A stretch of 61,563 nucleotides of DNA, from the NCBI GenBank assembly GCA_947492865.1, contig CANLOR010001096.1:1-61563 (forward strand). The letters run 5' to 3'. Made by a program: the position numbers and the translations under genes. The notes under the pieces were generated by a model that saw only the letters and a program-made list of their open reading frames with translations, was not told the origin of the DNA and ran no database searches. Source of the DNA: Aurantiphycus algarum. Its GTDB lineage: Bacteria > Bacteroidota > Bacteroidia > Cytophagales > Cyclobacteriaceae. Below, piece by piece: positions 199 through 60,187 of this stretch (its first letter is position 1; every line of letters starts with the position of its first letter).

Positions 199-1818
199 TT
201 ACCCAATTTCCTCTACCACTTGCTTATCATAGAGCAGTTCTTTTTCACCGAACAGCCTCTCCGCTGTTATTCCCTTGCTCTGACACTCCGCCACCAATCT
301 ATCAGACTGAAGGATAGGATTGGATTCATCGGTATATTTCACACTGCTTATAAATTCGACCCAAGGTTCCTGCCCCATAGCATATACATAAGCCTCTTTG
401 GGATTAAAGATATTGACCAGGGACATCCCTTTTTCACAATCGGAACCGGCCAGTCTTCTACTGCCATCTTTGTCCCTGGAAAGCTCTTCGGTACGCAATG
501 GTCCGTATAACCATGTCAGTGGCGCTCCGTCGCATTCCATACCCAGAAATATGACATCGATATCTCCTACCTGCCGGTGGACATGCTCATACAGCCTAGG
601 TTCCATCACTCTGGAATCTGCTACGAAAAGCAGTGAAAACTCATCGATTTTTACATGAAAACAAGCTTTGGCCTGAATATTCAGATCACTGTGCTCACCC
701 GTAAAAGGCAGGCCCGTGACTTTGGTATCTCCGAAAGAAATGGTTTCCATCTCGTCGATTTCGATGATATTGTCAAATCCTATACGGTTGAACATCAACT
801 TTAGGTTAGGATCCTGTAGCACATTGGTATTGGTCCTGGGCACGATGATGTTTTTTACCTTGTGTCTCAAGGGGAGCAGTGTTTCGAACAGGATATGGTC
901 CTGGTGATTATGGGTAATCAATATGTAGTCTATCGTATCGGGCAGATCTAGGTCCGAAAAATGGTTGACGTTGGAGTGGTATCCATAATAACTGATGAGC
1001 GGGTCAACGAGAATACTTACTTCTTTGGTTTCGATAAGTATACAAGCGTGGCCAAAGTACCGCATTCGGATTTTATCCCCACTGTACTTTTCATAGCCTG
1101 GGTAGGGTGTTGTGGTAAAAAGGTTTTCCAGCAACGTTTCCTGCTGGCCGTCCAAGTCGAAGAACGATTTTATGTGTTCTATCGTCTGCGGTGTTCGCCT
1201 CATCTTACTGATTTCATCTATGCCGGGGTGGTCAAAAGGTATTCTCAGGTGCAAGACGTCCGGTTCTTCGAGTTTAGGGGTACTCAGACAAAATGGTCGA
1301 TGGTCATTATCGGTAATCCAGAAGGCAATACTCTGTGTTTGGGGTTTGTAGTACTTACTTTCATAGAGCAAGGACTCGAATACTCTGAAAGAGGCGTTGT
1401 CGTTGAGGTCATAGGTCAGTTCTACGTATCCTTTGAGGATTTCGGGAACTTCTTCATATAGAGGCTCTAATGAAAAACCTTTTGGGTGATTTTTAAGTAT
1501 GGTGTCGAGTTCCTTGATAGCTTCTGCCAGTGCTATCATGTCAGCTTGATCCCGCAAGGTATTTTCTTTGAGCGATTTCACATCGTCCACTCTTTTACCT
1601 TCAAAATCCATAAAAGGCCCACCCAACATTTTAGGATTCTTTACCGCAGCGGCATGTATCTGTGGAGCCTGGATATAGGAATTCATTATCTTTAAGTGAC
1701 GTCCTGTGATGTTCATCGCAGCTGTAGCCGGTGATATGAGATGGGCCCATGCATACCATCCTTCAACTAGTGGTTCGATGACTACATTGGGTTTGAGGTA
1801 AACTGATCTTTCACTCAT
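199..1818 (-). CDS. CmlA-like non-heme di-iron beta-hydroxylase (N-terminal domain + metallo-beta-lactamase fold), probably acting on a carrier-protein-bound amino acid
   Basis: Track ORF of 539 aa with ATG at 1816-1818. The MBL-fold metal motif HxHxDH reads as 'ITHNHQDHI'. Size and two-domain layout resemble CmlA-type beta-hydroxylases. It is the last gene of the NRPS operon. The function rests on family resemblance read by eye. Confidence 0.6.
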   Translation of the reverse strand: MSERSVYLKPNVVIEPLVEGWYAWAHLISPATAAMNITGRHLKIMNSYIQAPQIHAAAVKNPKMLGGPFMDFEGKRVDDVKSLKENTLRDQADMIALAEAIKELDTILKNHPKGFSLEPLYEEVPEILKGYVELTYDLNDNASFRVFESLLYESKYYKPQTQSIAFWITDNDHRPFCLSTPKLEEPDVLHLRIPFDHPGIDEISKMRRTPQTIEHIKSFFDLDGQQETLLENLFTTTPYPGYEKYSGDKIRMRYFGHACILIETKEVSILVDPLISYYGYHSNVNHFSDLDLPDTIDYILITHNHQDHILFETLLPLRHKVKNIIVPRTNTNVLQDPNLKLMFNRIGFDNIIEIDEMETISFGDTKVTGLPFTGEHSDLNIQAKACFHVKIDEFSLLFVADSRVMEPRLYEHVHRQVGDIDVIFLGMECDGAPLTWLYGPLRTEELSRDKDGSRRLAGSDCEKGMSLVNIFNPKEAYVYAMGQEPWVEFISSVKYTDESNPILQSDRLVAECQSKGITAERLFGEKELLYDKQVVEEIG

Positions 1819-1911
1819 GGTTGTTGTTCTATGATTAATAATGGATTGATTTTATTAGGTATTGACAATACTTCTTCTATTCTATTTTCCCTAAGGAAAT
1901 CGACCATATGG

Positions 1912-3573
1912 CTACTCCTGACGGAGCATGGCCTTTTTAACTACAGGTCTATCTTTCAGAATTTTCCCAAAACCAAAATCGATGACCCTATCGGCGCAGT
2001 TATAATAGTCATCATCATGTGTGACCGCAATAATGGTTTTTCCCATTTGTTTGAGCTTTGGCACAAACTCCCGGTAGAAATAGGCCCTAAAGCGGGGGTC
2101 CTGTTCTGCGGCCCATTCATCCAGTACGATAATCGACTTCTGCTCCAATAAGCTGTAGATCATCGCCAAACGCTTCTGCTGCCCTTTTGATAACCTGCTG
2201 TCGATTTTGTTATTTTCATAATCGACCTTCACTATTTCTTCGAGGTCCATCATTTGGATATAATCCTTTAGTACAACGACCTCTTTGGACAGATCGAAAC
2301 CATAGAAGTTTTCGTTGAATAGGTAATGATTCGTGAAGATAGCGGACATGCTGTCACTGTATCTTGGATAATCTTTGCTGGAAAGGACCTGCCCGTCGAT
2401 ATCGATACTGCCTCCTGAGGGTCTGTAAAGTCCCGTGAGGATATTTATAAACGTACTTTTACCACTCCCGTTTCCACCCGTTATGAATATAACCTCCCCT
2501 TTGGATATGGTCAGATCAATCGGACCAAGGGAGAAAACTTTGTGGTCATCATTATAGTAATCATAAGTAATGTCGTTGAAATTCATCTGATGAAAGTCTC
2601 CTGTTATAAAAGGGGGACTTTTCGGGTCGATGTAATCCGTCGTGAAGGATTTCAGGTCTTTTTCTATTCTGTATATCCTACTTAGGGCAATTTTCACATC
2701 CGTATAAAAGGGTAGGAACATAATGAGTCTCGCTATGGGCGCCATTAGAAAAAGAATGACGGCAATAAATGTAGTCGTCTGGACAGGATCAAAGGACAGT
2801 ATCTGAGGAAGAAGAAAAATAATGACACCGAGTACAACGTACCAACTATAGGTACCCACCAATTCGTTGTCCACATACTTTTTAGAGGCCCTTACTCCGA
2901 GAGCCTTGCCTTGTTGACGGTTCTCTTTAATGTAATTGTTGAACAGGTTATCATTTCTTGTGCTGCTCATTTTTATTTCCTTGAACCCATAGAGTAGCTC
3001 TCGTAGATAGCCATAGTAATGGTCGTGCAGATCTCTTATCTCGCTCAAGTCCCTTTCGATTCCTTTATTTCTCAAAAGATAAACCGTCAAAAGAATGCCC
3101 ATCACGGTCAGCACACTGACTCCTCCTATAGGAGAAATCCAGAACAAGTAACCTAATCCACATACGGTAATCACGGTCGAATTGATTGCATTGACGAAAC
3201 CCTCGGGCACCCTGGCCAGTACTCTAGTATCACTGATGGCCGTATAAAACCGCTGAGAACCCAATTTCTCGAAATTCTCAAAAGCTGTATGCCGGAGTTT
3301 ATCTACAATCGATAGCTCCAGCCCATACAGGATTTCATTGGTGACATTGACCATGTAGTTCTGAAACACCTTGCTCATGACAAATGAGAACACGATCAGT
3401 CCCGAAAAAATCAGCCAGTCATACTCTGGATATGGACCGATGGACTCTCCACTAATGGTATTATTGAGAAATACCAGTATGGAACTGTACACAAAACTGC
3501 TCACACCTCCCAGAAGTATAATGTAGATATAAAACAATCTGGATTTTTGCTGAAATATTTTAAAAACGTTCAC
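1912..3573 (-). CDS. Fused TMD-NBD ABC exporter of the cyclic-peptide transporter type (SyrD/PvdE/YojI-like)
   Basis: Track ORF of 553 aa with an apparent GTG start at 3571-3573. The N-terminal half is hydrophobic. Walker A reads 'GGNGSGKST', the ABC signature 'LSKGQQKRLA' and Walker B 'IIVLDEWAAEQD'. It starts 31 nt downstream of the TE-containing NRPS gene. Confidence 0.85.
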   Translation of the reverse strand: MNVFKIFQQKSRLFYIYIILLGGVSSFVYSSILVFLNNTISGESIGPYPEYDWLIFSGLIVFSFVMSKVFQNYMVNVTNEILYGLELSIVDKLRHTAFENFEKLGSQRFYTAISDTRVLARVPEGFVNAINSTVITVCGLGYLFWISPIGGVSVLTVMGILLTVYLLRNKGIERDLSEIRDLHDHYYGYLRELLYGFKEIKMSSTRNDNLFNNYIKENRQQGKALGVRASKKYVDNELVGTYSWYVVLGVIIFLLPQILSFDPVQTTTFIAVILFLMAPIARLIMFLPFYTDVKIALSRIYRIEKDLKSFTTDYIDPKSPPFITGDFHQMNFNDITYDYYNDDHKVFSLGPIDLTISKGEVIFITGGNGSGKSTFINILTGLYRPSGGSIDIDGQVLSSKDYPRYSDSMSAIFTNHYLFNENFYGFDLSKEVVVLKDYIQMMDLEEIVKVDYENNKIDSRLSKGQQKRLAMIYSLLEQKSIIVLDEWAAEQDPRFRAYFYREFVPKLKQMGKTIIAVTHDDDYYNCADRVIDFGFGKILKDRPVVKKAMLRQE

Positions 3574-3604
3574 TTTTCTTCTTTTTGGTTTGATGATTAA
3601 TTTT

Positions 3605-6600
3605 TTAAACCGTTTCGACTGATCTGATATTCATTATCTTGTCAGTGAGGGACAGTATATTTTCCTTGTTCAGGATTCCATAATGGTCTCCTTCAGTCTC
3701 TTGGACAAAACATCTTGCTTGGGTCAGCCGGTCCCACTCTTGCATATCAGTTGCACAAGGGTTGTCACGGGCTTCTATAGCGTAAATGTTCCCTTTTACC
3801 TGCCCTGTAGGTGTATAGTTATGGAGTGCGAGGAGGTTGGAGTGCAGGACCCGTCTCATAGTTTCAATATGTGATTCGGAAAGGACCGCCATCCAGTGCC
3901 TTAGCTCTGTATCGATTATATTTTCCAACTCATTGGTATCCATACTCTTTTGTGCTGTGCCCGGCACTTCCTTATCCACTAGTATCAGTGTTACCGTATA
4001 GCCTCTATTTTCGGCTTTTTTGGCCATCTCAAAAGCTATTGCGGCCCCCATGGAGTACCCAAAAAGGGTTACCTCCTTCGTATTCTGAGTTTTGAGTACT
4101 TGGCTCAATAAGGAGTCGGATATCGCATCGATACTGGTATCGGGCCGTTCTCCTTCATTATATCCTTTGTACTGCAAGCCCATACACTGATATCTGCCCT
4201 GAAGGAAGGAAGACAATCCTTTGAATATCAAAGGAGTACCGATAACAGGCGGAACCATATACAATTTTTCCGTTTTCCCTTCTTCCGCTTCATTGAGGGA
4301 TATCAATAAATCATCATCACGTTCTCCCTCTATATATGTTGCCAAGGATTGTATGGTAGGATGGTTGTAAATGTCCTTTAGTGTTACCTTTTCTCCTGTT
4401 TCGGTAAAAATTTGGGTAACGAGGGAAGCTGCTTTTAATGATTGTCCTCCTGATTTGAAGAAATTGTCCGTGATGCCGGGAGCGGTTTGTTCGAGTACCT
4501 TCGCCCAGGCTTTTTGGAGTTTTTGCTCTAGATCAGTACTAGCAGTGCTATATTCCTGTACTTGTTTGTTGGCATTGGGCAATTGGGTACTATCTATTTT
4601 ACCATTGGCCGTCAGTGGATAATGCTCTAGAAATACAAAGCTCTCGGGCACCATATATATCGGGAGCAGTCCTTCTACAGCTGATTTCAACTCCACTTCT
4701 GTACAGTGTTGAGCAGGGATTATGTAAGCCGCTAGGTACTTTGACCTCTCCTCTCCTATCACTACTACTTTAGCGGATTTTACCTTTTCATGACTCAATA
4801 GTACGCTTTCTATTTCTCCGAGTTCGATCCTATTGCCCATGATCTTTACTTGATCATCTTTTCTGCCCATGAACCGGATATTACCATCGGGCATCCACAT
4901 ACCCAAGTCTCCCGTGCGGTACCATCTGCTGTTTTCCACAAACAGATCATCCACAAAATTTTTGGCCGTGACGTCTTCATTATTGACATAACCCTCCGAA
5001 AGGCCCATGCCCGATATCAATAGCTCCCCTACCACACCGATACCGCATAGCTTATCACCCTCATCGACAATGTACACTTTCATGTTGGAGATGGGTCTAC
5101 CTATCGGAATATCGGAATTATTGATGTTTTCAAGTCTGAGGGACGTAGCTACCACTGTTGCTTCCGTAGGTCCATAATTATTGACCAAGCGAAAGCCGGG
5201 ATTATCCACTATAGCTAACTTATCACCACCTGTGAGAAGCAGTACGCTGGTGTTTAGAGGTACTTCCTTAACGAAGTTTTCACAAACGGGGGTGGGCAAA
5301 AAAGTATGTGTGATACCATTGAACGCTATATACTTACCTATAGCCAGTACATCCAGTTTCGCATTATCTTCGATAATATGTAGCTCTCCACCCGCTATCA
5401 AACAGGGCCATATCTCCCAGACCGCCGCATCAAATCCGATACCGGCGTACTGGGTCGTCTTACTTTCCTGCCCCACGTCAAATTCCGCATTATGCCATAA
5501 ACAAAGGTTCAATAGGCTTTTATGATTGACCATGACCCCCTTTGGCCGGCCCGTAGAACCCGAGGTGAATATAGTATAGGCCAGGTCGCCTTGTGCATAG
5601 TCGATGTCGAGGTTTTCAGCGGGAGACAGGAAATGTCTTTCCACGATATCCTGTAAAGCCATCGTACTTCGGGCTCCAAGCCTTTCGGGGTGCCTATCCC
5701 AGTATTTATCTACAATCAAAGTACTCAGTTCAGCATCAGCGATGATGTTCTTTATCCTGTCTTTTGGGTACGATGGATCTATAGGGACATAAGCTGCACC
5801 TGCTTTCATTATCCCAAGCATGGCTGTTATCGCATGGACATCCCTATAGGTGACAAGCCCTATCCGTTCGCCTCTTTTGAAAGGAACATTTCGCAGAAGA
5901 TCGCGAGCAAACTGGTTAGCCCTACGGTTCAGCTCGTCATAAGTAATATGTTCTTCCCCGCAATACACCGCCACACCCTGCTGTTTTAGGGAGGCCTGTT
6001 CTTCGAACAGTTGTATTACTGTTCTTGATGTGGGCAGGTGGAGTTCCGTAGCATTGAAATCTTCGCGTATCAGACGCTCTTCCGACTCATCGATATAGCT
6101 GATTTCCTTTATAGGGGCAGTGTCTCTTTCCACTAAGGCCGTCAGTAAGTTTTTAAAATGGGCCATGAGCCTATCGATACGGTATTTCCCGAATAGGTCC
6201 GTATTGTAATTCAGGTTCAGGTAAAGCTTATCGCTGACATTCTGAAAGGAAAAAGTGAGGTCAAACTTACTTGTACCGGTATCACTTGTTACCGCCTCGA
6301 CCTGAAGTGACTCCATACCAAACTCTTGCTCATCTATATTGCTTTCCTGCATCGTTACCATGACACCGAACAAGGGCGACCGGCTCATATCCTGTGGAAG
6401 ACCGAGTTCTTCTATCAGCTTATCAAATGGGTAGACCTGATGTTCGAAAGCATCTATCATGGTATCCCTGACCGATTCAATCAAATGAACAAAGCCTTTT
6501 TCAGCATCGATTTTTGACCTTAAGGCCAGTGTATTCACATAAAAACCGATCTGTTCCTCTAGGCCCGGATGATTTCTACCGGCAATGGGCGTACCTATAA

Positions 6601-22687: not shown

Positions 22688-22774
22688 AATCTGTCATTAG
22701 TAATCATTGGACCAGCTTCGATTATTAAATCCACACAAACAAATGTGGGTCGGCAGGTCGAAAAGATTGTTCTT

Positions 22775-34258: not shown

Positions 34259-34263
34259 AAGGG

Positions 34264-35787: not shown

Positions 35788-36011
35788 GAAATAGGCTTCT
35801 CATAATCGGGAAGGAGTAGCCTGTTACAATGCCCCGAACATGGGTACTCATCCTGGGATTTTCATTCCATGGTAAAATAAAACCACCAAATATCGAATGC
35901 CGGACCATTACTTCATCTTCGGGTACAGCGCATTTGACCAGCGGTTTATAACTTTATAAATTACTTCAAGGCCAAGAAAATGGGTTCCATAAATGCCATG
36001 GGCTCCGAATA

Positions 36012-37112
36012 TCAAGTTTCGGCCATGGCGTTATATTTCATGATCTGTCGTTCTTCTGCTTTTTTAAGAACATTGATATTCTTGAGTGCGAAACCGGTGT
36101 AGCCATTGACCCGCTGTACCAGCTCGTAGAAGAAGAAGGGCCTATCACCAAAGGGTTTGATGAATTTCTGCAATAGGTAGCCGTCACCTTCTTTGTCGAT
36201 CAAGATGCCCTGTTCTTCGAGTTCATCGATATCGAAACCTTTCAGATCTTCATTTTCTCTTAGCAGGTCATAGTAAGTAGGTGGAAATTGAACAAAGTCT
36301 ATACTGTTCTTTCTCAGCTTTTTTACTGTTTCTACCAAATCATCGGTGGCAAAGGCTACATGATGTATACCAGGACCAAAGTTGTCGATATTCTGCTGGA
36401 CTTTTGAGTTAGGAGCATGACTGTTGGGTTCTGCCATTACAAAGGTCATACGCTTGTCCGGTGATTGATTGATGTTCAGCACCAGACCCGTCTTATTGTC
36501 CTCGCTCTTACTGATACCCTGTATCATCTGGGTACCCAAGGTATCTTTCAGATAGGATGTCCAAAAATCGATTTGGTTTATTCTGAGTTCACTGGCGATG
36601 TGGTCTACTGAGGTGAAGCCGTTGTCAAACGTCGCCTTACTCTCTACTACCTTCTCATAACCAGGTCGGAAAATGCCCTCATAGTTATCTCTATTGGAAA
36701 ATACGATTTCATTCTGGTCATAGAGCCTGATGGAGGCTTCTTCTATATATCCTTTTTCATCCTCGGTAGTGACGGGGAATCTAATGGGGATACCTCCTGC
36801 TGCTACAGCATGATCGAAAGCACTACTTACATCATCAGTAGCTATGACCACTCTTTTCATCCCCAGGGAATTGGTATTGACAAATGAAAGTACCTCGGCG
36901 GCATCCGTAGAGTTAGCGGAGGTCAGTGCCGCAGTTATAACCAGTTTTATCTCTCCTTTTTCCAGTAGATAAGAGACCACTCCTTTCGTCCCATTTTCAG
37001 GACTTTTATAGCCTATTATATCAAAGCCCAGAGCATTACTATGCCAGTATACCAAGGGTTTGGCCATGGATACGAATAGTTCTATATAATCTATATGATG
37101 GTTGGTCTTCAT
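36012..37112 (-). CDS. 4-hydroxyphenylpyruvate dioxygenase family enzyme (HPPD or 4-hydroxymandelate synthase, HmaS-like)
   Basis: Track ORF of 366 aa with a two-VOC-domain layout. Family motifs are 'GIHHVAF', 'GYLLQKFIKPFGDRPFFFYELVQR' and 'GFALKNINVLKKAEE'. Its start overlaps the stop of the upstream fusion gene by 4 nt. I cannot separate HPPD from HmaS by eye. Confidence 0.85.
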   Translation of the reverse strand: MKTNHHIDYIELFVSMAKPLVYWHSNALGFDIIGYKSPENGTKGVVSYLLEKGEIKLVITAALTSANSTDAAEVLSFVNTNSLGMKRVVIATDDVSSAFDHAVAAGGIPIRFPVTTEDEKGYIEEASIRLYDQNEIVFSNRDNYEGIFRPGYEKVVESKATFDNGFTSVDHIASELRINQIDFWTSYLKDTLGTQMIQGISKSEDNKTGLVLNINQSPDKRMTFVMAEPNSHAPNSKVQQNIDNFGPGIHHVAFATDDLVETVKKLRKNSIDFVQFPPTYYDLLRENEDLKGFDIDELEEQGILIDKEGDGYLLQKFIKPFGDRPFFFYELVQRVNGYTGFALKNINVLKKAEERQIMKYNAMAET

Positions 37113-39196: not shown

Positions 39197-39226
39197 AGTA
39201 TGATATTTTTTGGTGTGCTTAAGTTC

Positions 39227-54200: not shown

Positions 54201-57200
54201 TCATCCAAACCAGGGTGATTCCTTCCCGCTACTGCCGTACCTATGATGAGGTCTGACTGGTGACTGTAGCGATAGATAAGTACATTCAGTGCTGTCAGTA
54301 AAGTCGCGAAAGTACTGACCTGTTGACTTTTGCTAAAGGTCTTGACCTGATTGACGAGCTCCTTATCAAAGAGAAAGTGACTGATGGCACCTTCATGAAG
54401 CTTTTTATGGGGTCGTTTGTAATCTGTGGGCAGATTCAGGACAGGCAGTTCTCCTGACAGCCTGTTCAACCAGTAATTCTTATCGTTTTCCAAAAGCCCG
54501 GAAGATAAGCTATTATTGTTCCAGAGGGCATAGTCGCGGTATTGTAGGCGCAGTTCCCCGAGAGGAGAGGGTTTGTTTTCCAATGCAGCGCTATACAGGG
54601 TAAGCAGCTCCTGCATCAGTATTTTACCTGACCAATCATCAGTGATGATATGATGCAAGGCAATGAAAAGTACGTGGCTATTCGCAGCCACCTTTTTGAT
54701 GTCTACTTTTAACAAGGGGCCACTCTCTAGATCAAATGCAGTGGTCAGCATTGTATCTACCTGTTCGCTCAATTTTTGCGCTATATGCTCACTATTTTGA
54801 ATATCGGTATACCCGATTTCGAATCCATATTCCCAAAGCGCGTTTATTTTCTGCCTAGGTTCTCCATCCACGGATACAAAAGTTGTTCTTAGTACTTGGT
54901 GGCGCTGGAGCAAGGCAGTAAAGGCCGACTTTAAACTGTCCATATCCAGATGACCTTCCAGCTCATAGGACTCATACTCGTTATAGGCCAAGGTACCATG
55001 CCCTAAATGGCTCAGTACCCATAATCTTTTTTGTGCATTGGAAACTTCATAGAATTCCTGCTCGGGTTGCTGTGGAATCTCCTTGTACATTTCCTGTTTG
55101 GACAGCTCTATGGCACTGACCAAGTCCTTGACGGTAGGGTTCAGGAAAATATCTTTTATCGATACCTTGACCTTCAAGTCTCTGGACAATACAGCTATCA
55201 ATTGGGTCGCTTTGATAGAGTTGCCACCATACTCAAAAAAATCATCTTCAGCCCTTAACTCATTTATATCAAGCACTTTTGACCAGGATTCCAGTATTTT
55301 CACTCCCAGATCACTGAGCGGTGCTTCCTCATACTGTTGCTCATCATCATCTGCCTTCGTTTGCAGTAGGCCCTTTCTATCCACTTTACCCATCGTGGTA
55401 AGTGGAAAGGCACTTAGACCAACAAACTTGGAAGGTATCATGTAATAAGGGAGATAAGTACTCAGATAATTCCGTAACTCCTTTTTTGTCAATGATTTGC
55501 TACTGACCAAGTAGGCATGTAACTGCCCTGATTCCGTGGTCATGGCGACGACATCGGAAATCAGCTCATGGCGCATCAGTACTTTCTCTATTTCTTCCAG
55601 CTCTACTCTATACCCTCCTATTTTTACCTGAAAATCCTTTCTACCTAAAAATTCTATTTTACCGCCAGTGGTCCACCTTCCCAAATCTCCCGTGAGGTAC
55701 ATTTTCTCATCGGGACGATAGGGGTCGTCCACAAATTTTTCCTCGGTAAGTTCCGGTCTGTTAAAATAACCGCTGGCCAGGCCCGCGCCTCCAATGGCTA
55801 TTTCACCCACGCCTCCTTCGATTTTCAGGCGGTGGTTTTCGTCGAGGAGATAAATTTGATGATGAGCAATGGGAGTCCCTATTATCTCAGCATCCTCCGG
55901 TTTTTCTATCTCGTTGAAGGTTACGCATACAGTGGTTTCCGAAGGACCATAAGTATTAAATAGTCTCCAGGTTCCCCACAAGTTGGAGATGTAGCTGGGC
56001 AGGAGTTTATCCCCACCGCTGATTATCGCTCTGAGACTGCTGAGGCTTTCGGCATGTTGGTTCAGTTCCTTGATGACCAGCGGTGTGGTACTAAGGACAG
56101 TAGCACGATGTTTTTGTATTACTTCCAGCAGCTCATCGGTATTTTTACCGCCTTCTTCGGCGATGACCAGCTTTCCCCCCACACTAAGCACAGGAAACAC
56201 TTCTTCCACGAATGTATCGAAGGCTATGGAGGATTGTTGGATAATGGCATCTTTCTCGTCAATCTGAAAGTAGGCCTTGAACGTAGCTACGTAGTCGCTC
56301 ATAGCGCTATGGGGTATCATCACACCTTTCGGGTCACCTGTAGTAGCGGAGGTGTAGATAATATAGGCCAAGTGAGTGTTTTCTACTCTCTCATTGCTAT
56401 CAATGGGGGACAGTTCTGCGATGCTGCTTTGGAAAAGCGCACTATCTACAATGATGACCTCATGCTGCACTTCGATGAGGCCTTCGGCACTGGCAGTATC
56501 TGTCAATAACAGGGAGACTTTACTATCATGGAGGATATAGTTTACCCTTGCTTCCGGAAAGTCCGGATCTATCGGCACATACGTAGCCCCTGTTTTCAGC
56601 ACAGCGAATATCGTGGGGATCAATAAAGCGGACCTTCCCATCATTATGCCTATCCTATCTCCTACGCTCACAGCAGACCTTTCTTTGATACCCCGAGCTA
56701 TTTGGTTTGCTTTCTCGTTGATTTGCTGATAGGTGAACCGTCTTTCTCCACATACAATAGCTTCGTGGCGAGGAGTCTGTGCGGCTTGTTTTTCGAATGA
56801 AACATGGACAGGTTCCAATGAGATATGGTCCTCTGACCTAGATCGGGAGTAGGCTATCAATTGTCGTCGCTCCTCGGACAGTAGGATGTCCAGTTCCGAC
56901 AAACGTACCTCGGGTCGGCCCATGACCTGATGTATCAAATAGTTGAGATGACGGATGAGCTTTTCGATCTGCATAGCACTAAAGCGGTCCGTGTTATAAC
57001 GAATATCCAATTGCAACTGCTCCTTTTTAGGAATAAAATCGAACTGCAAATCCACAATACTGACGTGATGCTGTACGCTATAATCCTCTATGGTCAGGTT
57101 TTCCATTTTATTCTTCCAACCCGAATGGTCGAAATTCTGAAACAGCACAAGGATATCGAATAGTGGTGATCGATTTATGGTAGATTTCAATCCTAGGTCC

Positions 57201-60187
57201 TCCAGTATCGAATCATAGGAATAATCTTGGTGCTCAAACCCTGCCAGCACCTTGTTTTTCACATGGGTCAACAGTTGAAGAAAGCTATCCGAGGACCTGA
57301 ATTTTGTTCTGATACAAAGTGTTTTCAGAAAGTACCCCAACTGATTTTCCATCTCCTTTGTGTCCCTTCCGGCAATATCGGTACCGATAATCACGTCTTC
57401 TTGGCTCGAATATTTGTAGACCAGTGCATTCACCGCTGCCAATAATGTCATAAAATCAGTGACACCATGGTATCTTGAAAACTCCCTTATCGTACGGGTC
57501 TCTTTTTCCGAGAAGGTAAAGCTCAATAGATTGCCATTGAAAGTAGGATGGGGGAAAAGGTTTGATTTTCCATACAAATCCAGTATGGGGAGTTCACCTC
57601 CAAGTTCTTCCCGCCAATATTCTTTGCTCTCTTGAACCTTATCCAAGGACTGCGTATCTGACCGCCAAGCCATACAGTCTTTATAGTGGACAGTGAGTGG
57701 TGTCGGTTCTGAACTATCAGCAATACTCTGTTGCCTATAAAAAGCAGCCAACTCACTCAGCAATAAAGAAATGGAGTACCCATCGGTAATGATATGATGA
57801 ATAGTCAATGAAAAAAGATGGATTCTATCCGATAATCGAAGCAGTACGGCTCTGAACAAGGGCCCTTTTCCCAGATCGAAAGTGCTTCCAGCATATTCGT
57901 TGACGATGCTCTGCGCTTTTTCCGGTGATCTGGAAATGTCCTGAAAGCAAACCTTGAAATCAATATCCTCAGAAGAGAGGATTTTTTGATGAGGAATATC
58001 TTCACTGATGACAAAAATGGTCCTCAGTATTTCATACTTATCGACCAGCTGTTCGAATGCTTTTTCGAAAGTATGAATATCGAGTATCCCTTCCATCCGA
58101 TAGGCTAACGCTACATTGTAGGCATCTTTTCTATCACTTATCCCGTCCATTACCCATAAGCGTTGCTGTGCAGGGGAAAGTGTATAGCAGGTTTTTGAGG
58201 GCAAAGGGCGAATCGTTTCGGTTTTCTCTTTAGGCCGTTCATCGATTATCTTGATAAGTGAGGCCACGCTTGGGGTCTCGAATACGTCTCTAATAGTGAG
58301 TTTCACTTCCAGGGCTGCATTCAACCTACCGATCAACTGCATCGCCATTAAACTGTTCATGCCCAAATCCCGCAGTGCTGTATCTCCATCGATATCTTCT
58401 AGGGCCGTGAGCGACTTCAGCTCTTGTTGTACTACCTGCAAGGTCTCGCCACTGCGATAGTCACTTTTGTGATGACTCAACTGGGCCAGCACCTCATCAA
58501 ATGCACCGTTTCTATAATCGGAAAGAAGTTTATAGTGCTGTACCTTTCCACTGGTCGTTTTGGGTACTTTTCTTATCGGTATGACCAAGTCTACGGTAAG
58601 GCCTATTTTTTCCAGTACTGCTCTTTTGATACTGTCTCTTACAAAATGGAACTTCTCCAGCATTCCCTTATAAAGGGTCAGAATAATCAGCTGCTCTATA
58701 GCGGCATCCTCAGACCTATCACCGATAGCCACCACTTTGCCCAAATCTATCCCTACTTCGTCTTGGATGACTTGTTCGATGTCTTGAGGGTAATAGTTCT
58801 GCCCATTGATGATAATTACATTTTTATGTCGCCCAGTGACTATTAGCCTGCCTTTACTCGTAAATCCTAGGTCACCAGTGCGCAGCCAGCCATCTTCGGT
58901 AAACAGTTTTTCGGTAGCTTTTGGATTTTGATAATAGGCCTTCGTCACATTCTCCCCTTTTATCTGAATATGGCCTACGGTATCATCAGTCATCACTCGG
59001 TTTTGGTCATCGCTGATCCTGACTTGGGTATGATCGATGGGTCTTCCCACTTCCACAAAAGATACACTATCCTTATCCAGAGCCTTAGCCCTGACCACCG
59101 AGCTGCCAATAGTCAAATCTACTCTTTTAACAATATGTTCAGTAAGTGGGTCTCCCGGGTCCGGTAGAGTGACTGCTACCGAAGCCTCAGCCAAACCATA
59201 CCCCGGAAATACCACGTTTTCCCTTAATCCATAGATTTGCATTTTTTCCTCAAATTGGGCGCAGAGGGTTTTGGAAATAGGTTCTGCCCCATTATAGATA
59301 AGTCTAAGGTGACTAAGGTCCCAATCGGTGGCATCTCTCCCATCTATGGCCGAAAGAAAATATTTCAGACCGAAATTAGGCGAGTATAAGAGGCTTATTT
59401 TGTGCTGAGCGGCTTTTTCCATCCATAATATTGGCCTCCGAATAAAAAGAGATGTAGGCATTATGAACTGATTCACACCACTGAAAACACCTGATAAATG
59501 AAAGCATATCAATCCCATATCATGGGTCAGTGGCATCCAACTGAGCATGGAGTCTTCCTTGGTGATTTCTGAACGTGAACATATATCCATAACGTTCGTA
59601 ACTAGATTGCCATGAGTAAGTTCCACCCCTTTTGGGTCACCGGTAGAACCTGATGAAAATTGTATATATGCAGTGTCTGAGGAAGAAGGCATTTCCTGTT
59701 CATAGGTCAGCTCAAAATCCCAGCCTTCTTCAATAGCAAGTAGCTCCTCTACCAATATCAGATTATCGTTTACTTGTTCTCCGAACCGGTTCAGCCTATT
59801 TTTATCGGCATACCCCCTTACCTTTCGAACCTGCGCTGTCTCTGTTACATAGATAGGATTTTTCAAAGTAGACCATACCTTCACCAATTTGAGCAAGTGG
59901 TCCTCTTGATTGCCAAGTGCTAGAGGAACGGGAATCATTTTTCCCAGTAATCCTGCCCAGAAAAGAACGACAAAAGACTCATTGTCACTCACCTGAAGTA
60001 CCATCTCATCCCCTGCCTTGGCCCCCTTACTACGTAGCTTTTCCCATACTGAGCCGGCCCTATACAATAAGTCTTTATAGGATACAAAATTCTCAGTATG
60101 GCTATCCGATATAAAAGTAACTCCTTTGTTTTTGCCTGTTGCCGCTGCCTCTAAAAACGAAATTAAATCCACTTTATTATACAACAT
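39227..60187 (-). CDS. Lipo-initiation NRPS: FAAL-ACP-C-A-T-C-A-T-C-A(MT-like insert)-T-C-A-T-C-A(MT-like insert)-T-C
   Basis: Track ORF of 6986 aa with ATG at 60185-60187. FAAL motifs are 'IQFSSGSTGDPKGV' (about 59.65 kb), 'WMPLTHDMGL' and 'GRHKNVIIINGQNYYPQDIE'. The ACP motif 'LGMNSL' is at about 58.36 kb. C-domain HHxxxD motifs lie at about 57.79, 54.64, 51.48, 47.42, 44.24 and 40.19 kb. A3 motifs lie at about 56.35, 53.19, 50.06, 45.99 and 42.82 kb. T motifs lie at about 55.22, 52.05, 48.00, 44.82 and 40.77 kb. The protein ends with a full C domain and the tail '...SEDEPLFNF'. Confidence 0.97.
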   Translation of the reverse strand: MLYNKVDLISFLEAAATGKNKGVTFISDSHTENFVSYKDLLYRAGSVWEKLRSKGAKAGDEMVLQVSDNESFVVLFWAGLLGKMIPVPLALGNQEDHLLKLVKVWSTLKNPIYVTETAQVRKVRGYADKNRLNRFGEQVNDNLILVEELLAIEEGWDFELTYEQEMPSSSDTAYIQFSSGSTGDPKGVELTHGNLVTNVMDICSRSEITKEDSMLSWMPLTHDMGLICFHLSGVFSGVNQFIMPTSLFIRRPILWMEKAAQHKISLLYSPNFGLKYFLSAIDGRDATDWDLSHLRLIYNGAEPISKTLCAQFEEKMQIYGLRENVVFPGYGLAEASVAVTLPDPGDPLTEHIVKRVDLTIGSSVVRAKALDKDSVSFVEVGRPIDHTQVRISDDQNRVMTDDTVGHIQIKGENVTKAYYQNPKATEKLFTEDGWLRTGDLGFTSKGRLIVTGRHKNVIIINGQNYYPQDIEQVIQDEVGIDLGKVVAIGDRSEDAAIEQLIILTLYKGMLEKFHFVRDSIKRAVLEKIGLTVDLVIPIRKVPKTTSGKVQHYKLLSDYRNGAFDEVLAQLSHHKSDYRSGETLQVVQQELKSLTALEDIDGDTALRDLGMNSLMAMQLIGRLNAALEVKLTIRDVFETPSVASLIKIIDERPKEKTETIRPLPSKTCYTLSPAQQRLWVMDGISDRKDAYNVALAYRMEGILDIHTFEKAFEQLVDKYEILRTIFVISEDIPHQKILSSEDIDFKVCFQDISRSPEKAQSIVNEYAGSTFDLGKGPLFRAVLLRLSDRIHLFSLTIHHIITDGYSISLLLSELAAFYRQQSIADSSEPTPLTVHYKDCMAWRSDTQSLDKVQESKEYWREELGGELPILDLYGKSNLFPHPTFNGNLLSFTFSEKETRTIREFSRYHGVTDFMTLLAAVNALVYKYSSQEDVIIGTDIAGRDTKEMENQLGYFLKTLCIRTKFRSSDSFLQLLTHVKNKVLAGFEHQDYSYDSILEDLGLKSTINRSPLFDILVLFQNFDHSGWKNKMENLTIEDYSVQHHVSIVDLQFDFIPKKEQLQLDIRYNTDRFSAMQIEKLIRHLNYLIHQVMGRPEVRLSELDILLSEERRQLIAYSRSRSEDHISLEPVHVSFEKQAAQTPRHEAIVCGERRFTYQQINEKANQIARGIKERSAVSVGDRIGIMMGRSALLIPTIFAVLKTGATYVPIDPDFPEARVNYILHDSKVSLLLTDTASAEGLIEVQHEVIIVDSALFQSSIAELSPIDSNERVENTHLAYIIYTSATTGDPKGVMIPHSAMSDYVATFKAYFQIDEKDAIIQQSSIAFDTFVEEVFPVLSVGGKLVIAEEGGKNTDELLEVIQKHRATVLSTTPLVIKELNQHAESLSSLRAIISGGDKLLPSYISNLWGTWRLFNTYGPSETTVCVTFNEIEKPEDAEIIGTPIAHHQIYLLDENHRLKIEGGVGEIAIGGAGLASGYFNRPELTEEKFVDDPYRPDEKMYLTGDLGRWTTGGKIEFLGRKDFQVKIGGYRVELEEIEKVLMRHELISDVVAMTTESGQLHAYLVSSKSLTKKELRNYLSTYLPYYMIPSKFVGLSAFPLTTMGKVDRKGLLQTKADDDEQQYEEAPLSDLGVKILESWSKVLDINELRAEDDFFEYGGNSIKATQLIAVLSRDLKVKVSIKDIFLNPTVKDLVSAIELSKQEMYKEIPQQPEQEFYEVSNAQKRLWVLSHLGHGTLAYNEYESYELEGHLDMDSLKSAFTALLQRHQVLRTTFVSVDGEPRQKINALWEYGFEIGYTDIQNSEHIAQKLSEQVDTMLTTAFDLESGPLLKVDIKKVAANSHVLFIALHHIITDDWSGKILMQELLTLYSAALENKPSPLGELRLQYRDYALWNNNSLSSGLLENDKNYWLNRLSGELPVLNLPTDYKRPHKKLHEGAISHFLFDKELVNQVKTFSKSQQVSTFATLLTALNVLIYRYSHQSDLIIGTAVAGRNHPGLDEQLGMYINTLPLRSKLKGGESFKGLLQRIKHMVFEALEHQDYPFDLLVESLGLRRDLSRAPLFDVMVSYQSTEQNIDAYQLGNLTLQRRAKSKSASKYDLTFYFEESPRGMALRLEYDCSLFAESTALRMGGHLMEILRYALSNEGTAIAAIDYLPTVEKEQLLKTFNPKRQDYPKDKNVYHLFKEQVEKCPQDTSVVFREKAFTYADIDKKVDGLAAQMKADFAVLPNDTIGILLGRSEKVIVTILAIWKLGARYVPIDPQHPIERMNYILEDTGLELLVTVGKYLPLLEKVSPSVRVITTDSYSENTGMEEQSLKEMYPLKDSEGYMAYVLYTSGSTGKPKGVEVGHVGLTNFLLSMKSFPGFTKEDRLIAITTYVFDISIMEMFLPLICGGQVVVVASADTTNTESLQRIIEEEQVTMMQATPSMWSLLMESGWKGRKDLRVLTGGERLSDDLNERLSERAKEVWNMYGPTETTVWATCAEVSGLNHAPIGKPIHNTGAYVVDTLGQMVPIGVYGELYLDGDGLAQGYLNKPELTKERFKVLPLVGKRCYQTGDIVRWLPDGSLEYLSRVDDQVKVRGHRIEPGEIDSVLRGHEQIKEAATLAIPNERGEYELVSYYVADKDVMSTELRSYLSTVLPSYMVPTHMVNIDHHLPMTPSGKLDKKVLPLPVKNEKNGNSITTPQSKTEYRLCQVWTTVLAIDEVGTRQSFFEVGGHSLRAIRLISAIEREFGIKIVLEDVFVHSTIAEQARLIENKDHRTLQKIPTLPLQEHYEVTPSQKQFWMLDQMEEKLVYTMPAVHRLSGDLDERAFARAFDMLIQRHESFRTRFRTIDGEVRQVIENGNLGFKIEKIDLSKDNNPNRELAQRIEEESKCPFDLMNGPLVRAQLIRMHTSEYVFLFTMHHIIADGWSIEILIREVLSLYAADIDGRTHALPLLEVQHKEYAAWYNQVLREEEEENRSYWKATFADGVPLLNLPTESIRPARKTFYGDQKKFSIDKTLKNRLKEIAQQNEASLYMVLLATQAIVYHKYSAQTDMVIGTPIANRDRAELQEQIGYFICNVPLRLTFDATAPFDELLKSTKEVLLEADKHKNYPLEYLVEDLQLKRDFSRSLLYDVGFTWHGKRHDYFDSLDTQLTIEAMDAGYRFAQTDIWLFGIEKDEGIDFVVEYSTDLFDERWITTFIAHYENLLEEIVTKHQEPLTAIEYMQIEERDIILSDFNDTLQQNDYERTIVEVFEDHVAAHPEAVAIVFKEVSITYKELNERANRLAHYLRQEFEVERNTLVGIMLHRSEQVAVSILAIVKAGGAYVPIDPDLPKERINYILEDTGLHSLLTDSESMFSLEGWNGNLFALDIQMDLIDTSDVNPKRINTPDDLAYVIYTSGSTGRPKGVLIEHHGVINLTQWQKVNFRLSEESNIFQNFSYSFDGAVGETFMALLNGATLCMYSKELTAEQLIAFINRYQVDVGVFVPSMLRQLEPSQIEHIHRMSIVSVGEVCSQDLAKKWSAECRFMNAYGPTEYTVYSHLYEIEQSRYQAKGTVPVGEPIFNTHSYILDKFQKPVAYNIEGEMYLSGPGIARGYLNNNVATLSKFVPNPYFLSDKYELIHDVQFEGSKKEIEDFRSSGFPLAVPEKNQEAYEINDIEALSEKLSALDEDIRLSTIGYIENHRDNKVKYDCFCRYFFEGLYHSYASVGINEEVLNYLFPFEDGLSGKKGVELGFGNAEIMNVLRSMDADIHGLELSPYSVQYARQQGLSVQHGVVDVEFNAFRSAYGMEIGSKDFALSTLLLDRVEKPHNLIGNLLGVLKEGGRFALQTLLPVVPIDDGDVENKIVYSQEKHWVCMGQNEADDKLRLVQVLYHLGARDIRIVPIPYVVASRDGIQEYTLWSFSGTKTFVFDPQIHFSRMYKTGDMAKYLPDGNIDFIGRSDDQVKLRGYRIELGEIERTLEKHASIEEAVVMVKADNVGDKSLHAYLTTGSPISKDEVKAYLKTLLPYYMIPSTIALLESMPLNTSGKVDRSALLGYENDSFSETTYEAPETPHEKMVARLWMEILDRERVSKNDNFFELGGHSLKATRFISRLAQQFDVEVEIGAIFKCPTVREIARIIENTEKHRFESIEIIREQSHYELSHAQKRIWLLSELDDTGNAYNICGAHRIKGKLDIDALSRSFQLLVSRHEILRTNFYLQGDKLVQQVKDVDTYVFPMEHIDLCGHSHQEKVLSTYAEKTIRTVFDLKSDPLMKVTLLQVEVDSFVLLFAMHHIISDGWSTKVLVEEVVHAYETFSQGRVPRPKPLKVNYKDYANWHGKLLKGPAMEKHKEFWLQQFQEQPTPINLPSDYGRPPLKSFNGSKMEYTIPRALLVSLRKYARSNDVSSFMLLITVLKLMIYKYTDQNDITLGTPVLGRDHIDLEGQIGVYINTIALRTRFDKNITFHDLLQGVKKTTVEAYDHQSLPFDYLVEKLDLKRDLSRSPLFDIIVSHENEELHGDGLNTFGEVEISPFPLDVHISQFDLSFRFIESTETLSLEVEFNTDMFSERTISVMVGRYRQLLTNTLSEPNTKLTDIAWLETAEQHRLLLEFNATDKQYGHSRTVLEMFEEQVAQNPKAIALISGSEQVTYGMLEDKSVQIAATLYDAGVREGDVVGVLVEKSIALVAALFGLFKVKACYVPIDTTYPDDRIRFILSDCRAKTLLVDSDVQSAKRYGVNVIHIANAQTDNTSIALLEENFLDNDSLAYIIYTSGTTGRPKGVGVSHANLSHFLENVKENYGADHRLKMPFIASHAFDISLFQLLAPLTNGGQSIIIGKEALLEMPHFVALLKKASMLDTVPALYQRICDHIIENGLEEDFQGIERLFVGGDVIPDHLLTKLAQTFTNADIVVTYGPTEGTIFCTSIQYPKSNHGELRKGNILGRPLDNVKVHVLDTNNKLQPIGVVGELCIAGAGVATGYFEQPQLTNSSFIDNPYGSGKLYRTGDLARWNNDGKLEFMGRADHQVKVRGYRIELGEIERMLSTSFLVKETVATVFESNTNEKLICVFFIAEEPVEKGLLRSYLRNKLPEYMIPADFVQLEAFPLNSNGKIDKKELLSDYSFQGASSETYEAPKGYLQESLITIWEEVLEISPIGVNSNFFELGGHSLKATKVVSKILKSIGIDTNITSLFRYPTVKELAIQLKKQGGLVYEPISPINQAAYYEVSLGQKRLWILHQMEGQKASYNIPGAYRIDRQLDSVALCSGFNSLIDRHEILRTTFLQVDGELRQKVHEKMEFELEGIDLKDSENPMEEAYQWMFKEAEEPFDLEQGPLLRAKLLELAEQQYVLLFTIHHIISDAWSMNVLITEVMEAYNCYQEEKTYFKTPLAIHYKDYAAWQRKTIQEPVYTAHKDFWEKLYDSDIPMLDLPLDRQRPLLQSFAGDAVSITLERELSQAIISLSTTAESSLFMFLIASVNVLLYKYSGQGDIVIGTPVAGREHPDLEEQIGFYVNTLPLRNQLSADDRFSEVLENVKSNTLKAYEHQSYPFDLLVESLDLRRDLSRSPLFDVMVALHASDHELVDNEHIRPLEVKSVSSKFDITFNFHLTKNGTIRLEITYSTALFNKDRMERALEHYRNIAKAVSGEFDAKIKDIDYLSHQEYTEIIQVFNDSRSAYPYGQTIVEAFEQQVAQRPEQIGIIFGNQRLTYNSINERANQLAHQLITDQNVCPQDFVGIVMEKSPMLIISLLAVLKAGAVYVPIDPSLPAERIAYILKDTQLSVLLYKENHTAEGVLSGWNGTKVKVVDSVEDAPARINNPKVRSNDADPAYIIYTSGSTGQPKGVLVPHRGVVNLTNWQQKNFTIGTESRVLQHFSYSFDGAIGETFMAMLNGATLCMYSEYLTPEGMVDFINEQQISVGVFVPSLLHQMSPEAIKHIDKMSVVSVGEVCPPSLARKWSAQCRFMNAYGPTEYSVYSHLHEVDYQMLSLQGDSPVAIGKPISNTDSYILDNDGNPVSTGVEGDLYLSGLGMAEGYLHNTVATLEKFLPNPFFLSDKYEDRGRLQAKAWKQQVQDFRKKAQKQPPITNEAIQDISKLYDLTQNLDADIVVGTKAFLDKHQGNPVKYEGFSRYFLEGYHNSYASVGMDASVVKQLFALDDFTGKKGVELGFGNAEVLSILQELGAEVIGFELSPFFIQRARDIGLEAYLAEVDLPFEEFCTAHDLLPGSKDFSLSTLLLDRVEYPQNLIKNLLGVLKEDGRFALQTLLPIVPEDDGGVEEKIVYTQNQDRICLGKNMEEDKLKMVQVFYDLGARDIVIRNFQLIVSSRDGIQEYTIWSFSGRKTFAKQAQDHYSRMYRTGDRAKYLPDGNVMFLGRQDDQIKLRGYRIEIGEIERALEKYQEVNEAVVLVKEDTFRDKSLVAFVVGNVPVDESALRGYLRQVLPAYMIPSTIVQLDSFPLNNSGKVDRKKLPIPTGRSTDLDAVETGPMSKLEKQIVGIWEDILGKKNIGPSDNFFELGGHSLKATRLVTRLYKILGIQLDLVAIFKFPTPELMATHIESQQRDNYLPIIPIDEKSYYEVSNAQKRMWFLNQLDPLGTQYNISGAHHLYGKLNVEAFRKAFDALFVRHEILRSVIVNIEGMPKQRILDVEKSDFKMVYLDYRNEDTSAEKAQVIIREESNHVFDLEKPPLLRGILVHVSEEHFIFILTLHHIIADGWSMKVLIKDLLQHYSTSFDTEVEKTTPLKIQYKDYVVWYEELLQQKKLLSHKQYWESTLQELPPQSEFYSALTVGGTEEKGTYTLSIPTQVTDNLKKLSLDSGSTVFIVLLTALKVLLYRYTGENDIIVGTPVSGRIHPDLENQIGFYVNTLPIRTTFKNDDTLKTLLQTVRDSVFSAWKHQAYPYDEIIRDLHRTGQLIEGKLFNVMISYTKEDQSTSENDLEGIKIKSQFEEQDKGDFDLDIMFMERADGSEILCSVNYKVGVFDTNTMVDFKDHLLKIIHYQTHQMDTDLIDIEMVSDQQTTSEGLSEDEPLFNF
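41270..42169 (-). other. Class I SAM-methyltransferase-like domain inserted between A6 and A7 of A domain 5 (6986-aa NRPS)
   Basis: The flanks are '...GMAEGYLHNTVATLEKFLPNPFF' (A6) and 'SRMYRTGD' (A7). The insert of about 300 aa contains motif I 'GKKGVELGFGNAEVLSILQELGAEVIGFELSP', 'DFSLSTLLLDRVEYP' and 'LLGVLKEDGRFALQ'. Confidence 0.75.
48497..49411 (-). other. Class I SAM-methyltransferase-like domain inserted between A6 and A7 of A domain 3 (6986-aa NRPS)
   Basis: The flanks are '...GIARGYLNNNVATLSKFVPNPYF' (A6) and 'SRMYKTGD' (A7). The insert of about 305 aa contains 'GKKGVELGFGNAEIMNVLRSMDADIHGLELSP', 'DFALSTLLLDRVEKP' and 'LLGVLKEGGRFALQ'. It is clearly paralogous to 41270-42169. Confidence 0.75.
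58245..58443 (-). other. Loading acyl carrier protein domain
   Basis: 'DIDGDTALRDLGMNSLMAMQLIGRLN' lies between the FAAL domain and the first C domain. Confidence 0.8.
58500..60187 (-). other. Fatty acyl-AMP ligase (FAAL) loading domain
   Basis: FAAL-type core motifs are listed under the parent CDS. The domain ends near 'TSGKVQHYKL' (about 58.52-58.56 kb). Confidence 0.8.

Follow-up and report, generated by a model that had tools for sequence, protein, structure and literature searches.

The cluster described here is a ten-gene nonribosomal peptide synthetase (NRPS)/polyketide synthase (PKS) locus (g1–g10) at positions 199-60187 of a stretch of Aurantiphycus algarum DNA (contig CANLOR010001096.1 of assembly GCA_947492865.1; the whole 61,563-nucleotide stretch is referred to below as the window), and it is best approached through the described systems that it resembles. 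MtaG/MelG-type modules carry a monooxygenase inside a glycine-specific adenylation (A) domain, followed by a carrier protein and a thioesterase (TE), and α-hydroxylate glycine in a terminal amide-forming chemistry; the 4-hydroxyphenylglycine (Hpg) cassette HmaS/Hmo/HpgT is found in glycopeptide and CDA clusters, and its oxidase Hmo is FMN-dependent. PuwE, of the puw cluster of Cylindrospermum alatosporum, combines a non-reducing PKS module, an aminotransferase (AmT), a flavin monooxygenase domain (Ox) and an NRPS module, which together account for a 3-amino-2-hydroxy acyl unit (PMC4219810). In the myxoglucamide (mxg) pathway, α-oxidation of a PKS-extended γ-amino acid by MxgE, a didomain of a condensation (C) domain and an Ox, has been demonstrated (PMC13638107). 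Finally, the family 6 interrupted A domains (A6-M type VI-A7) were defined from 14 sequences by Lundy et al. 2020, with a published insert length of 300 ± 4 aa and predicted O-methylation of hydroxylated aromatics (PMC8341866); our literature search found neither a characterised a6-a7 methyltransferase (M) domain nor an assigned product for this family.

We consider it probable that the locus in the window encodes one colinear, fatty acyl-AMP ligase (FAAL)-primed hybrid NRPS/PKS line from an uncultured, probably Cytophagales-like member of Bacteroidota, and that its product is an acylated 13-residue peptide with one internal C2 unit. The cluster is intact and orphan, and each kind of component in it has already been described.

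Domain architecture and predicted assembly

Domain strings were assigned from Pfam (with g1 searched as seven pieces), NCBIfam and motif checks; all ten genes lie on the minus strand. The first protein, g1 (39227..60187; 6986 aa), has the string FAAL-ACP-(C-A-T)x5-C, where ACP is an acyl carrier protein and T a thiolation domain. Its FAAL domain (aa 1-565; 58493..60187) combines PF00501 with a DIP2-like C-subdomain, and the top NCBIfam match of the N-terminus is the fatty acyl-AMP ligase model NF006624 (332 bits, under the full-length cut-off since the query was a domain); PF00501 and PF00550 span the loading didomain at aa 22-646, and the loading ACP (58217..58432) holds its serine in the motif LGMNSL. 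Five modules follow, at 55109..58084 (module 1, with a starter-type C domain), 51941..54934 (module 2), 47891..51784 (module 3), 44714..47737 (module 4) and 40658..44551 (module 5), the A domains of modules 3 and 5 being interrupted by a methyltransferase; g1 then ends in a full-length C domain (39230..40504; PF00668 positions 37-452 of 456) and the tail ...SEDEPLFNF. The stand-alone g5 (31637..34258; 873 aa) reads halfC-A-T, its N-terminal ~260 aa matching the C-terminal lobe of the C domain alone (Pfam C positions 186-341). The PKS g6 (28615..31647; 1010 aa) is a ketosynthase (KS)-acyltransferase (AT)-ACP module with intact catalytic motifs (KS C183 in NTACSS, H319 and H357; AT GHSLG and HAFH; ACP GGDSL), in which Pfam found no ketoreductase, dehydratase or enoylreductase domain and whose AT is predicted from its HAFH motif to be malonyl-specific. 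Next come g7 (22775..28618; 1947 aa), with a TubC_N docking domain, then C-LLM-A-T-C (LLM, luciferase-like monooxygenase) and the tail ...DEGEVFNF, and g8 (3605..22687; 6360 aa), which reads halfC-A-T-(C-A-T)x5-TE and holds the only TE of the cluster (3644-4267; motif GYSMG). Altogether there are 13 amino-acid A domains, 13 full C domains, all with HHxxxD, and 14 carrier domains, all with the serine motif. Two further genes complete the set: g9 (1912..3573; 553 aa), an ABC exporter of the cyclic-peptide-exporter family (PF00005; TIGR01194 at 300 bits, above the 286.2 cut-off), and g10 (199..1818; 539 aa), a CmlA-type non-haem diiron β-hydroxylase (PF18456, 1.7e-97) with a CmlA_N domain, a metallo-β-lactamase fold and the motif HNHQDH, matching 8A90 at E = 3e-142 and CmlA itself (4JO0) at E = 5e-122.

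An original prediction, made by a model from the letters and translated reading frames, had proposed much of this. Its FAAL priming and module count of 5+1+1+6 agree with the HMM searches and motifs, as does its KS-AT-carrier module without reductive domains; its tally of 13 amino acids, one malonate and one fatty acid is correct by domain counts under colinearity; and Pfam recovers both the terminal C domains that it assigned to A-T proteins acting in trans with a half-C start and the monooxygenase (PF00296, in g7) that it placed in a C-A linker. Likewise, its methyltransferase-interrupted A domains (Pfam, g1 modules 3 and 5), its arylglycine-type cassette (HMM and motif searches, g2–g4) and its CmlA-like hydroxylase (PF18456; 4JO0) were all found. 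What it had called non-standard parts are thus present, but each has a described precedent, so that they are not unusual in kind.

To extract substrate codes, the 13 A domains were aligned with one another and anchor positions were taken from GrsA. Those counted as canonical predict Gly for g1 module 2 (DIMQLGMVWK) and, in g8, Orn for module 2 (DVGEIGSIDK), Val for module 3 (DAFWLGGTFK), Gln for module 5 (DAQDLGVVDK) and Leu for module 6 (DAWFLGNVVK); g1 module 1 is Lys-like (DTESIGTVCK), the g7 domain Gly-like (DVMQLGVLWK) and g8 module 4 Glu-like (DMKDLGMVDK). Two codes are non-canonical: DGGVVVAVYK, aromatic-like, in g1 modules 3 and 5, and a code that we denote X and regard as a candidate for an arylglycine, DIFDFGTIFK in g1 module 4 and DIFDFGTVFK in g5 and g8 module 1. 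Because proteinogenic residues, Tyr and His included, have canonical codes in related Bacteroidota loci, both the DIF-type and the DGG-type code probably denote non-proteinogenic substrates.

Under this assignment, the FAAL of g1 would adenylate a fatty acid and load it onto the adjacent ACP, and the starter C domain would N-acylate the first, Lys-like residue; modules 2-5 would then add Gly, an aromatic residue methylated on its T domain, X, and a methylated aromatic residue again. The terminal C domain of g1 would join this chain to X carried by g5, with the acidic ...LFNF tail probably docking on the half C domain; g6 would add one malonate, leaving the β-keto group in place. The C-LLM portion of g7 would pass the chain to Gly, the PuwE-like monooxygenase most likely hydroxylating C2 of the ketide, and the terminal C domain of g7 would transfer it to g8 for the addition of X-Orn-Val-Glu-Gln-Leu. 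Release by the TE, probably with cyclisation, would be followed by export through g9. We envisage that g2–g4 supply the arylglycine along the route Phe, Tyr, 4-hydroxyphenylpyruvate, hydroxymandelate, arylglyoxylate, Hpg, and that g10 β-hydroxylates one T-bound residue.

Interrupted A domains and an arylglycine-type cassette

The methyltransferase inserts of g1 lie at 48503..49420 (module 3; PF08241/PF13847 and motifs) and 41276-42193 (module 5; Pfam and motifs). In module 3 these motifs stand at aa 3562 (a6) and aa 3900 (a7), where uninterrupted domains have a 35-aa spacing, which gives an insert of ~303 aa between a6 and a7. The type VI motifs are recognisable as GVELGFGNA for motif i (the published G-to-A variant), DFALSTLLLDR for motif iii in the first insert (by regular expression; the variant DFSLSTLLLDR in the second by eye) and GRFALQTLLP for motif iv, with a partial match to motif ii (HGLELSPYSV, by eye). 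By insertion site, length, motifs i, iii and iv (ii in part) and aromatic-like code, these A domains are assigned to family 6, and we saw no structural difference from the published family (PMC8341866). A search of the inserts against the PDB gave no useful homologue. A second family-6 protein was found in a metagenome (P0240 in locus L103), with the nearly identical code DGGVVVGVYK, and a DIFDFGTVFK domain is present in its cluster too; within 10 kb of this protein we saw only NRPS genes. As a separate observation, DIFDFGT[V/I]FK and DGGVVV[A/G]VYK recur unaltered in clusters (L103 and L091-L093) whose proteins are just ~30% identical to those of the window, both codes occurring in L103 (JGI contig Ga0606056_0007).

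Between g1 and g5 lies the three-gene cassette. The 695-aa g2 (37109..39196; Pfam, NCBIfam and PDB matches) fuses a biopterin-dependent phenylalanine hydroxylase (aa 1-240; 1LTU, E = 3e-48; NF008877 at 241 bits, slightly below the cut-off of 247) to a class I/II aminotransferase (aa 300-695, with PF00155 at aa 337-671) that is HpgT-like at the family level only, being ~30% identical to its actinomycete relatives; the KEGG-based JGI name of its homologues is (S)-3,5-dihydroxyphenylglycine (Hpg/Dpg) transaminase. The 366-aa g3 (36012..37112) was identified by structure-sequence search, NCBIfam and alignment to 1T47 as an Fe(II) dioxygenase with the fold of 4-hydroxyphenylpyruvate dioxygenase (HPPD). 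Its metal ligands H187, H270 and E349 (1T47 numbering) are intact, and relative to the Streptomyces avermitilis HPPD it carries P243V, N245A and F364I, with Leu for S230; among 20 Bacteroidota homologues the Ile at 364 is invariant, and P243 and N245 are lost in all. Through a constant numbering offset, this Ile corresponds to Ile355 in the pocket of Streptomyces coelicolor hydroxymandelate synthase (Hms; residue numbers from PMC3720870). On these residues g3 is a candidate (hydroxy)mandelate synthase, a call that rests on the 1T47 alignment and the published numbering since no authentic HmaS was found within 10 kb in the actinomycete loci reached through the aminotransferase. The third gene, g4 (34264..35787; PF01565/PF02913), encodes an FAD-linked 2-hydroxyacid oxidase of the GlcD/D-lactate-dehydrogenase type rather than an FMN-dependent Hmo, and it could be a non-orthologous replacement of Hmo. 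Its start may be TTG at 35787 (507 aa, the longest reading frame) or ATG at 35697 (477 aa, as in public gene calls).

The trio g2–g4 stands beside NRPS genes in >20 Bacteroidota loci, often together with CmlA-like and ABC-exporter genes, and is most simply read as a variant Hpg pathway whose amino donor, Tyr, would come from the hydroxylase. The arylglycine from this cassette is the best candidate for X (DIFDFGT[V/I]FK), a link suggested by the synteny C-tail, cassette, halfC-A(DIFDFGTVFK) in Fulvivirga imtechensis, by a related code in a further locus (L020) and by the three uses of the code in the cluster itself. A metagenome scan for relatives of g5 returned 12 loci at ≤32% identity, in which the code and the split junction recur; linkage to the cassette was not confirmed in that scan.

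Monooxygenase, split modules and competing readings

The LLM domain of g7 (25979..26938) matches PF00296 at 4.5e-51 and aligns end to end with PuwE Ox (PDB 6KET; 319 of 320 residues, E = 4.4e-95). It comes after the non-reducing KS-AT-ACP of g6 and before an NRPS A-T unit, as it does in a Chitinophagales metagenome-assembled genome (MAG; L089), where KS-AT-ACP is followed by C-LLM-A(Gly)-T-C and a CmlA-like gene is also present. Given the PuwE homology, the MxgE precedent and this matching unit, the LLM most likely hydroxylates C2 of the ketide, a reading by analogy. In two other loci, from Flavobacterium algoritolerans (L090) and a Fluviicola MAG (L019), the LLM interrupts a Gly-like A domain in the manner of MtaG and the PKS module comes after rather than before it, an arrangement that differs from the C-LLM-A order of the window and the Chitinophagales MAG.

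Both g1 and g7 end in a full C domain and an acidic tail finishing in FNF (SEDEPLFNF at 39230-39271 and DEGEVFNF at 22778-22810, respectively, with a conserved acidic LFNF/VFNF end), and both g5 and g8 begin with a conserved ...LL(L)xQ...RFW segment (..LLLTQ..RFW..) leading into a half C domain (34170-34258 and 22600-22687). The combination of an LFNF-type tail and a half-C head is seen at both junctions here and also in L009 (3-806) and L092; the related tails are SEDEILFNF in F. imtechensis and DDLFNF in the metagenome contig L092, with a variant, DENDLFDFHSFSH (...DLFDFHSFSH), in L091. The protein downstream of the tail in L091 and L092 is ~29% identical to g5 yet has the code DIFDFGT[I/V]FK. 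We propose the LFNF tail and the half C domain as a candidate conserved docking pair for split NRPS modules, judging from these recurrent sequences. In the same two contigs, the DIF-type A domain bears a methyltransferase of the a8-a9 type, and after it come two Condensation-family matches in succession, the first of which is probably an epimerisation (E) domain.

Several observations weigh against parts of the proposed route, and they bear mainly on the site of oxidation, the order of the proteins and the function of the cassette. The A domain after the LLM is of Gly type in the window and canonically Gly-specific in the independent Chitinophagales locus (DILQLGVIWK), which fits hydroxylation of glycine equally well: an LLM acting as in MtaG/MelG would α-hydroxylate T-bound Gly to a stable α-hydroxyglycine or, through hemiaminal collapse, would free the N-acyl-hexapeptide-ketide as a carboxamide, with a glyoxylyl unit left behind as primer for g8 and two shorter products as the outcome. 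The MtaG arrangement in the Flavobacterium and Fluviicola loci speaks for this chemistry, but we regard it as unlikely here; the nearest characterised homologue, PuwE Ox (E = 4e-95), has a PKS-derived C2 as its substrate and stands ahead of a Val module, the LLM of g7 precedes the Gly-like A domain rather than lying within it, and the module is followed by no TE but by a C domain and six further modules, which argue that the chain continues. As to protein order, the tails of g1 and g7 and the heads of g5 and g8 are so alike that g1 could dock on g8 and bypass g5–g7; over ~275 aligned positions g5 and g8 share 28% identity in their N-terminal parts, and g1 and g7 end in C domains that are mutual closest relatives (41% identity). 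Were these terminal C domains to serve release or branching, or were g1 to pass its chain directly to g8, the outcome would be a shorter lipopeptide, such as an acylated 11-residue peptide without the ketide, or several products. Gene order, overlaps of 4-11 nt and the single TE nevertheless suit one line, g6 and g7 have a separate dock (TubC_N), skipping would make g5-g6-g7 a dead end, and in F. imtechensis, L091 and L092 the tail/head junction occurs once each and links consecutive NRPS genes; we therefore hold a departure from colinearity to be very improbable. E domains were not found in the cluster, and its C domains lack the N-terminal HH motif that would mark a dual E/C type, so that stereochemistry is not predictable on the line that we favour.

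The cassette invites a third alternative, to which we give a small but appreciable chance: g2–g4 may form a tyrosine/homogentisate-type or other aromatic 2-oxo/2-hydroxy-acid pathway, with the DIFDFGTVFK domains taking an unrelated non-proteinogenic residue and the family-6 A domains taking the cassette product. The dioxygenase g3 is indeed nearer to true HPPDs (1T47, E = 4e-44) than to the solved mandelate synthases (2R5V, E = 5e-28), and the oxidase is not of the FMN type. FAD/GlcD-type oxidases act on D-2-hydroxy acids, whereas the characterised Hms makes (S)-mandelate (PMC3720870), so that g3 and g4 may not match in stereochemistry. The codes add to the doubt. None of the 13 A domains has a classical Hpg code, DIFDFGT[V/I]FK (three times) and DGGVVVAVYK (twice) both differing from what we take to be the Hpg type, DIFHLGLLCK or DAVHLGLLCK; with the former, DIFDFGTVFK has only D, I, F and K in common. 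The DIF-type code is also present on metagenome contigs with no visible cassette within 8-18 kb, the DIF- and DGG-type codes occur together in the unrelated L103, the DGGVVVxVYK code is Phe/Tyr-like, and O-methylation of hydroxylated aromatics is predicted for the family-6 M domain. On the other side, g3 reaches 213 bits where the HPPD equivalog model requires 277, lacks P243 and N245 and shares with all 20 homologues the Ile that aligns with Ile355 of Hms; the aminotransferase homologues bear the Hpg/Dpg transaminase name; and g2–g4 stay together within NRPS clusters, where catabolism would have no need of them. We thus continue to favour the arylglycine assignment for the cassette.

Gene layout, flanking DNA and comparison with described systems

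The ORF listing reproduces the ten-gene, one-strand layout of the original prediction, gene lengths included, and its four close junctions, namely 4-nt overlaps at 28615-28618 (g6/g7) and 37109-37112 (g2/g3), 11 nt shared by g5 and g6 (31637-31647) and 5 nt separating g4 from g5 (34259-34263). The remaining intergenic gaps are of 30, 87, 31 and 93 nt, with one larger gap between g3 and g4, of 224 nt (TTG start of g4) or 314 nt (ATG start); the three plus-strand ORFs of ≥150 aa are each antisense inside g1–g10. This spacing is compatible with co-transcription of g1–g10, which we infer, although the g3-g4 gap is the sole site within the cluster with room for an internal promoter and could hold one, a point to set against a single transcript. 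Upstream of g1, the window contains a 1.4-kb non-coding leader (60188..61563; 29% GC, no ORF >47 aa) that probably holds the promoter. A single Bacteroidetes -7-like box, TACATTTG, lies at 60242-60249, 55 nt before the g1 ATG, and is weak evidence; the full -33/-7 pattern is absent upstream of g1, and sigma-70 scans, by a model unsuited to Bacteroidota, gave matches no more frequent than in shuffled sequence. At 61053-61084 (minus strand) a perfect 13-bp hairpin with a T-run resembles a terminator belonging to a unit farther upstream, and an Rfam scan of the window returned zero RNA families. Exact protein matches place the cluster on contig CANLOE010000003.1 (148 kb) of MAG GCA_947492745.1 as well as on ENA and Logan metagenome contigs. 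On CANLOE010000003.1 a second biosynthetic cluster lies ~8 kb past window position 1 (L003 16471-21620); it includes a 2712-aa PKS of trans-AT type, a stand-alone acyltransferase and a paralogue of NusG, and two genes, for a polysaccharide deacetylase and a TPR protein, intervene between it and g10.

The GC content of ~44% across the cluster fits placement in Bacteroidota, and homologues of g2, g3, g4, g7 and g10 are almost all from this phylum. One block of g8 stands out (7838..10990, aa ~3900-4950, T4-C5-A5 for Gln), with a GC content of 0.54-0.59 versus ~0.44 elsewhere, sharp borders and GC3 (GC at third codon positions) of up to 0.73. Its closest database relatives are ~40% identical and mainly from high-GC phyla (myxobacteria, Longimicrobium, Planctomycetes), in contrast to g7, whose matches are almost all Bacteroidota; the block is probably a horizontally acquired T-C-A exchange unit, and at ~40% identity the best matches do not identify a donor. 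An antisense ORF at 7577-8197 overlaps the block and may be a by-product of it. Direct-repeat analysis of the cluster found just conserved NRPS motifs at 60-75% identity, so that the modules do not appear to be recent duplicates, short segments that reach 80-84% excepted.

Bacteroidota are under-explored for non-ribosomal peptides, and an intact 60-kb cluster is a concrete target for genome mining and for heterologous expression or synthetic-bioinformatic synthesis. It would be useful above all for testing interrupted A domains of family 6 and the Bacteroidota arylglycine cassette: two such A domains beside a hydroxylated-aromatic amino-acid pathway offer a direct way to test the M-domain substrate, and the cassette suggests that an uncharacterised version of arylglycine biosynthesis is widespread in Bacteroidota. 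The natural T-C-A replacement and the conserved split junction could also inform NRPS engineering. General understanding of such systems is unchanged in principle.

The closest homologues are all in uncharacterised genomes or MAGs. The top named homologue of g2, from F. imtechensis AK7, is 65% identical, the nearest non-self protein with the architecture of g7 is 42-44% identical, and relatives overall fall at 42-65% (F. imtechensis and the Chitinophagales MAG). Just as the original prediction could name no characterised cluster with this combination, homologue and literature searches, which did not cover MIBiG, found none with this gene order, and the literature searches turned up no lipopeptide from Bacteroidota that contains an arylglycine or is built in this way, and no matching Fulvivirga lipopeptide. 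We raise tentatively the possibility that the product is a structurally new lipopeptide, the first to be linked with interrupted A domains of family 6 and also with an arylglycine pathway specific to Bacteroidota (a phenylalanine hydroxylase-HpgT fusion, an HPPD-derived mandelate synthase and an FAD oxidase in place of Hmo), with a mid-chain α-oxidised β-keto γ-amino acid and a hitherto undescribed LFNF/half-C docking pair.

Among described systems, the chitinopeptin clusters of Chitinophaga (PMC9248904) are likewise Bacteroidota cyclic lipopeptide NRPSs, with 14-15 residues and CmlA-type β-hydroxylation; they differ in having classical E domains, β-OH-Asp/Phe/Ile, Dap and N-Me-Val, and were rejected as a match for want of an arylglycine and a mid-chain ketide. 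With the actinomycete Hpg cassette HmaS/Hmo/HpgT (PMC3720870 for Hms) the locus shares an HPPD-fold enzyme whose residue at position F364 is Ile, together with a 2-hydroxyacid oxidase and an aminotransferase, all within an NRPS cluster, whereas here the oxidase is of FAD/GlcD type, the aminotransferase is fused to phenylalanine hydroxylase, the dioxygenase forms a lineage of its own (N245 replaced by A or V, S230 by L) and the code of the candidate A domain departs from the classical Hpg code. The mxg pathway (PMC13638107) is also a FAAL-initiated NRPS/PKS in which a C domain fused to an FMN monooxygenase α-oxidises a PKS-extended γ-amino acid, a likeness drawn from its description and not from sequence; MxgE, however, stands alone as a didomain whose HH motif is mutated to HP, and it comes from a myxobacterium that makes short glycolipopeptides, whereas the C domain of g7 keeps HHxxxD and belongs to a full module. 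Closest of all in its parts, the puw cluster (PMC4219810) is a FAAL-primed NRPS/PKS lipopeptide line with an ABC exporter and a terminal TE, in which a luciferase-like Ox, closely homologous to the LLM of g7, comes after a non-reducing KS-AT-ACP and ahead of an NRPS module. In puw the FAAL and ACP are separate, an AmT domain is present, the PKS modules operate at the beginning, on the fatty acid, and the Ox stands before the C domain; here the FAAL-ACP is fused to the NRPS, no AmT domain occurs, the PKS acts mid-chain after residue 6 and the Ox lies between C and A, and the two systems differ further in phylum, peptide length and residues.

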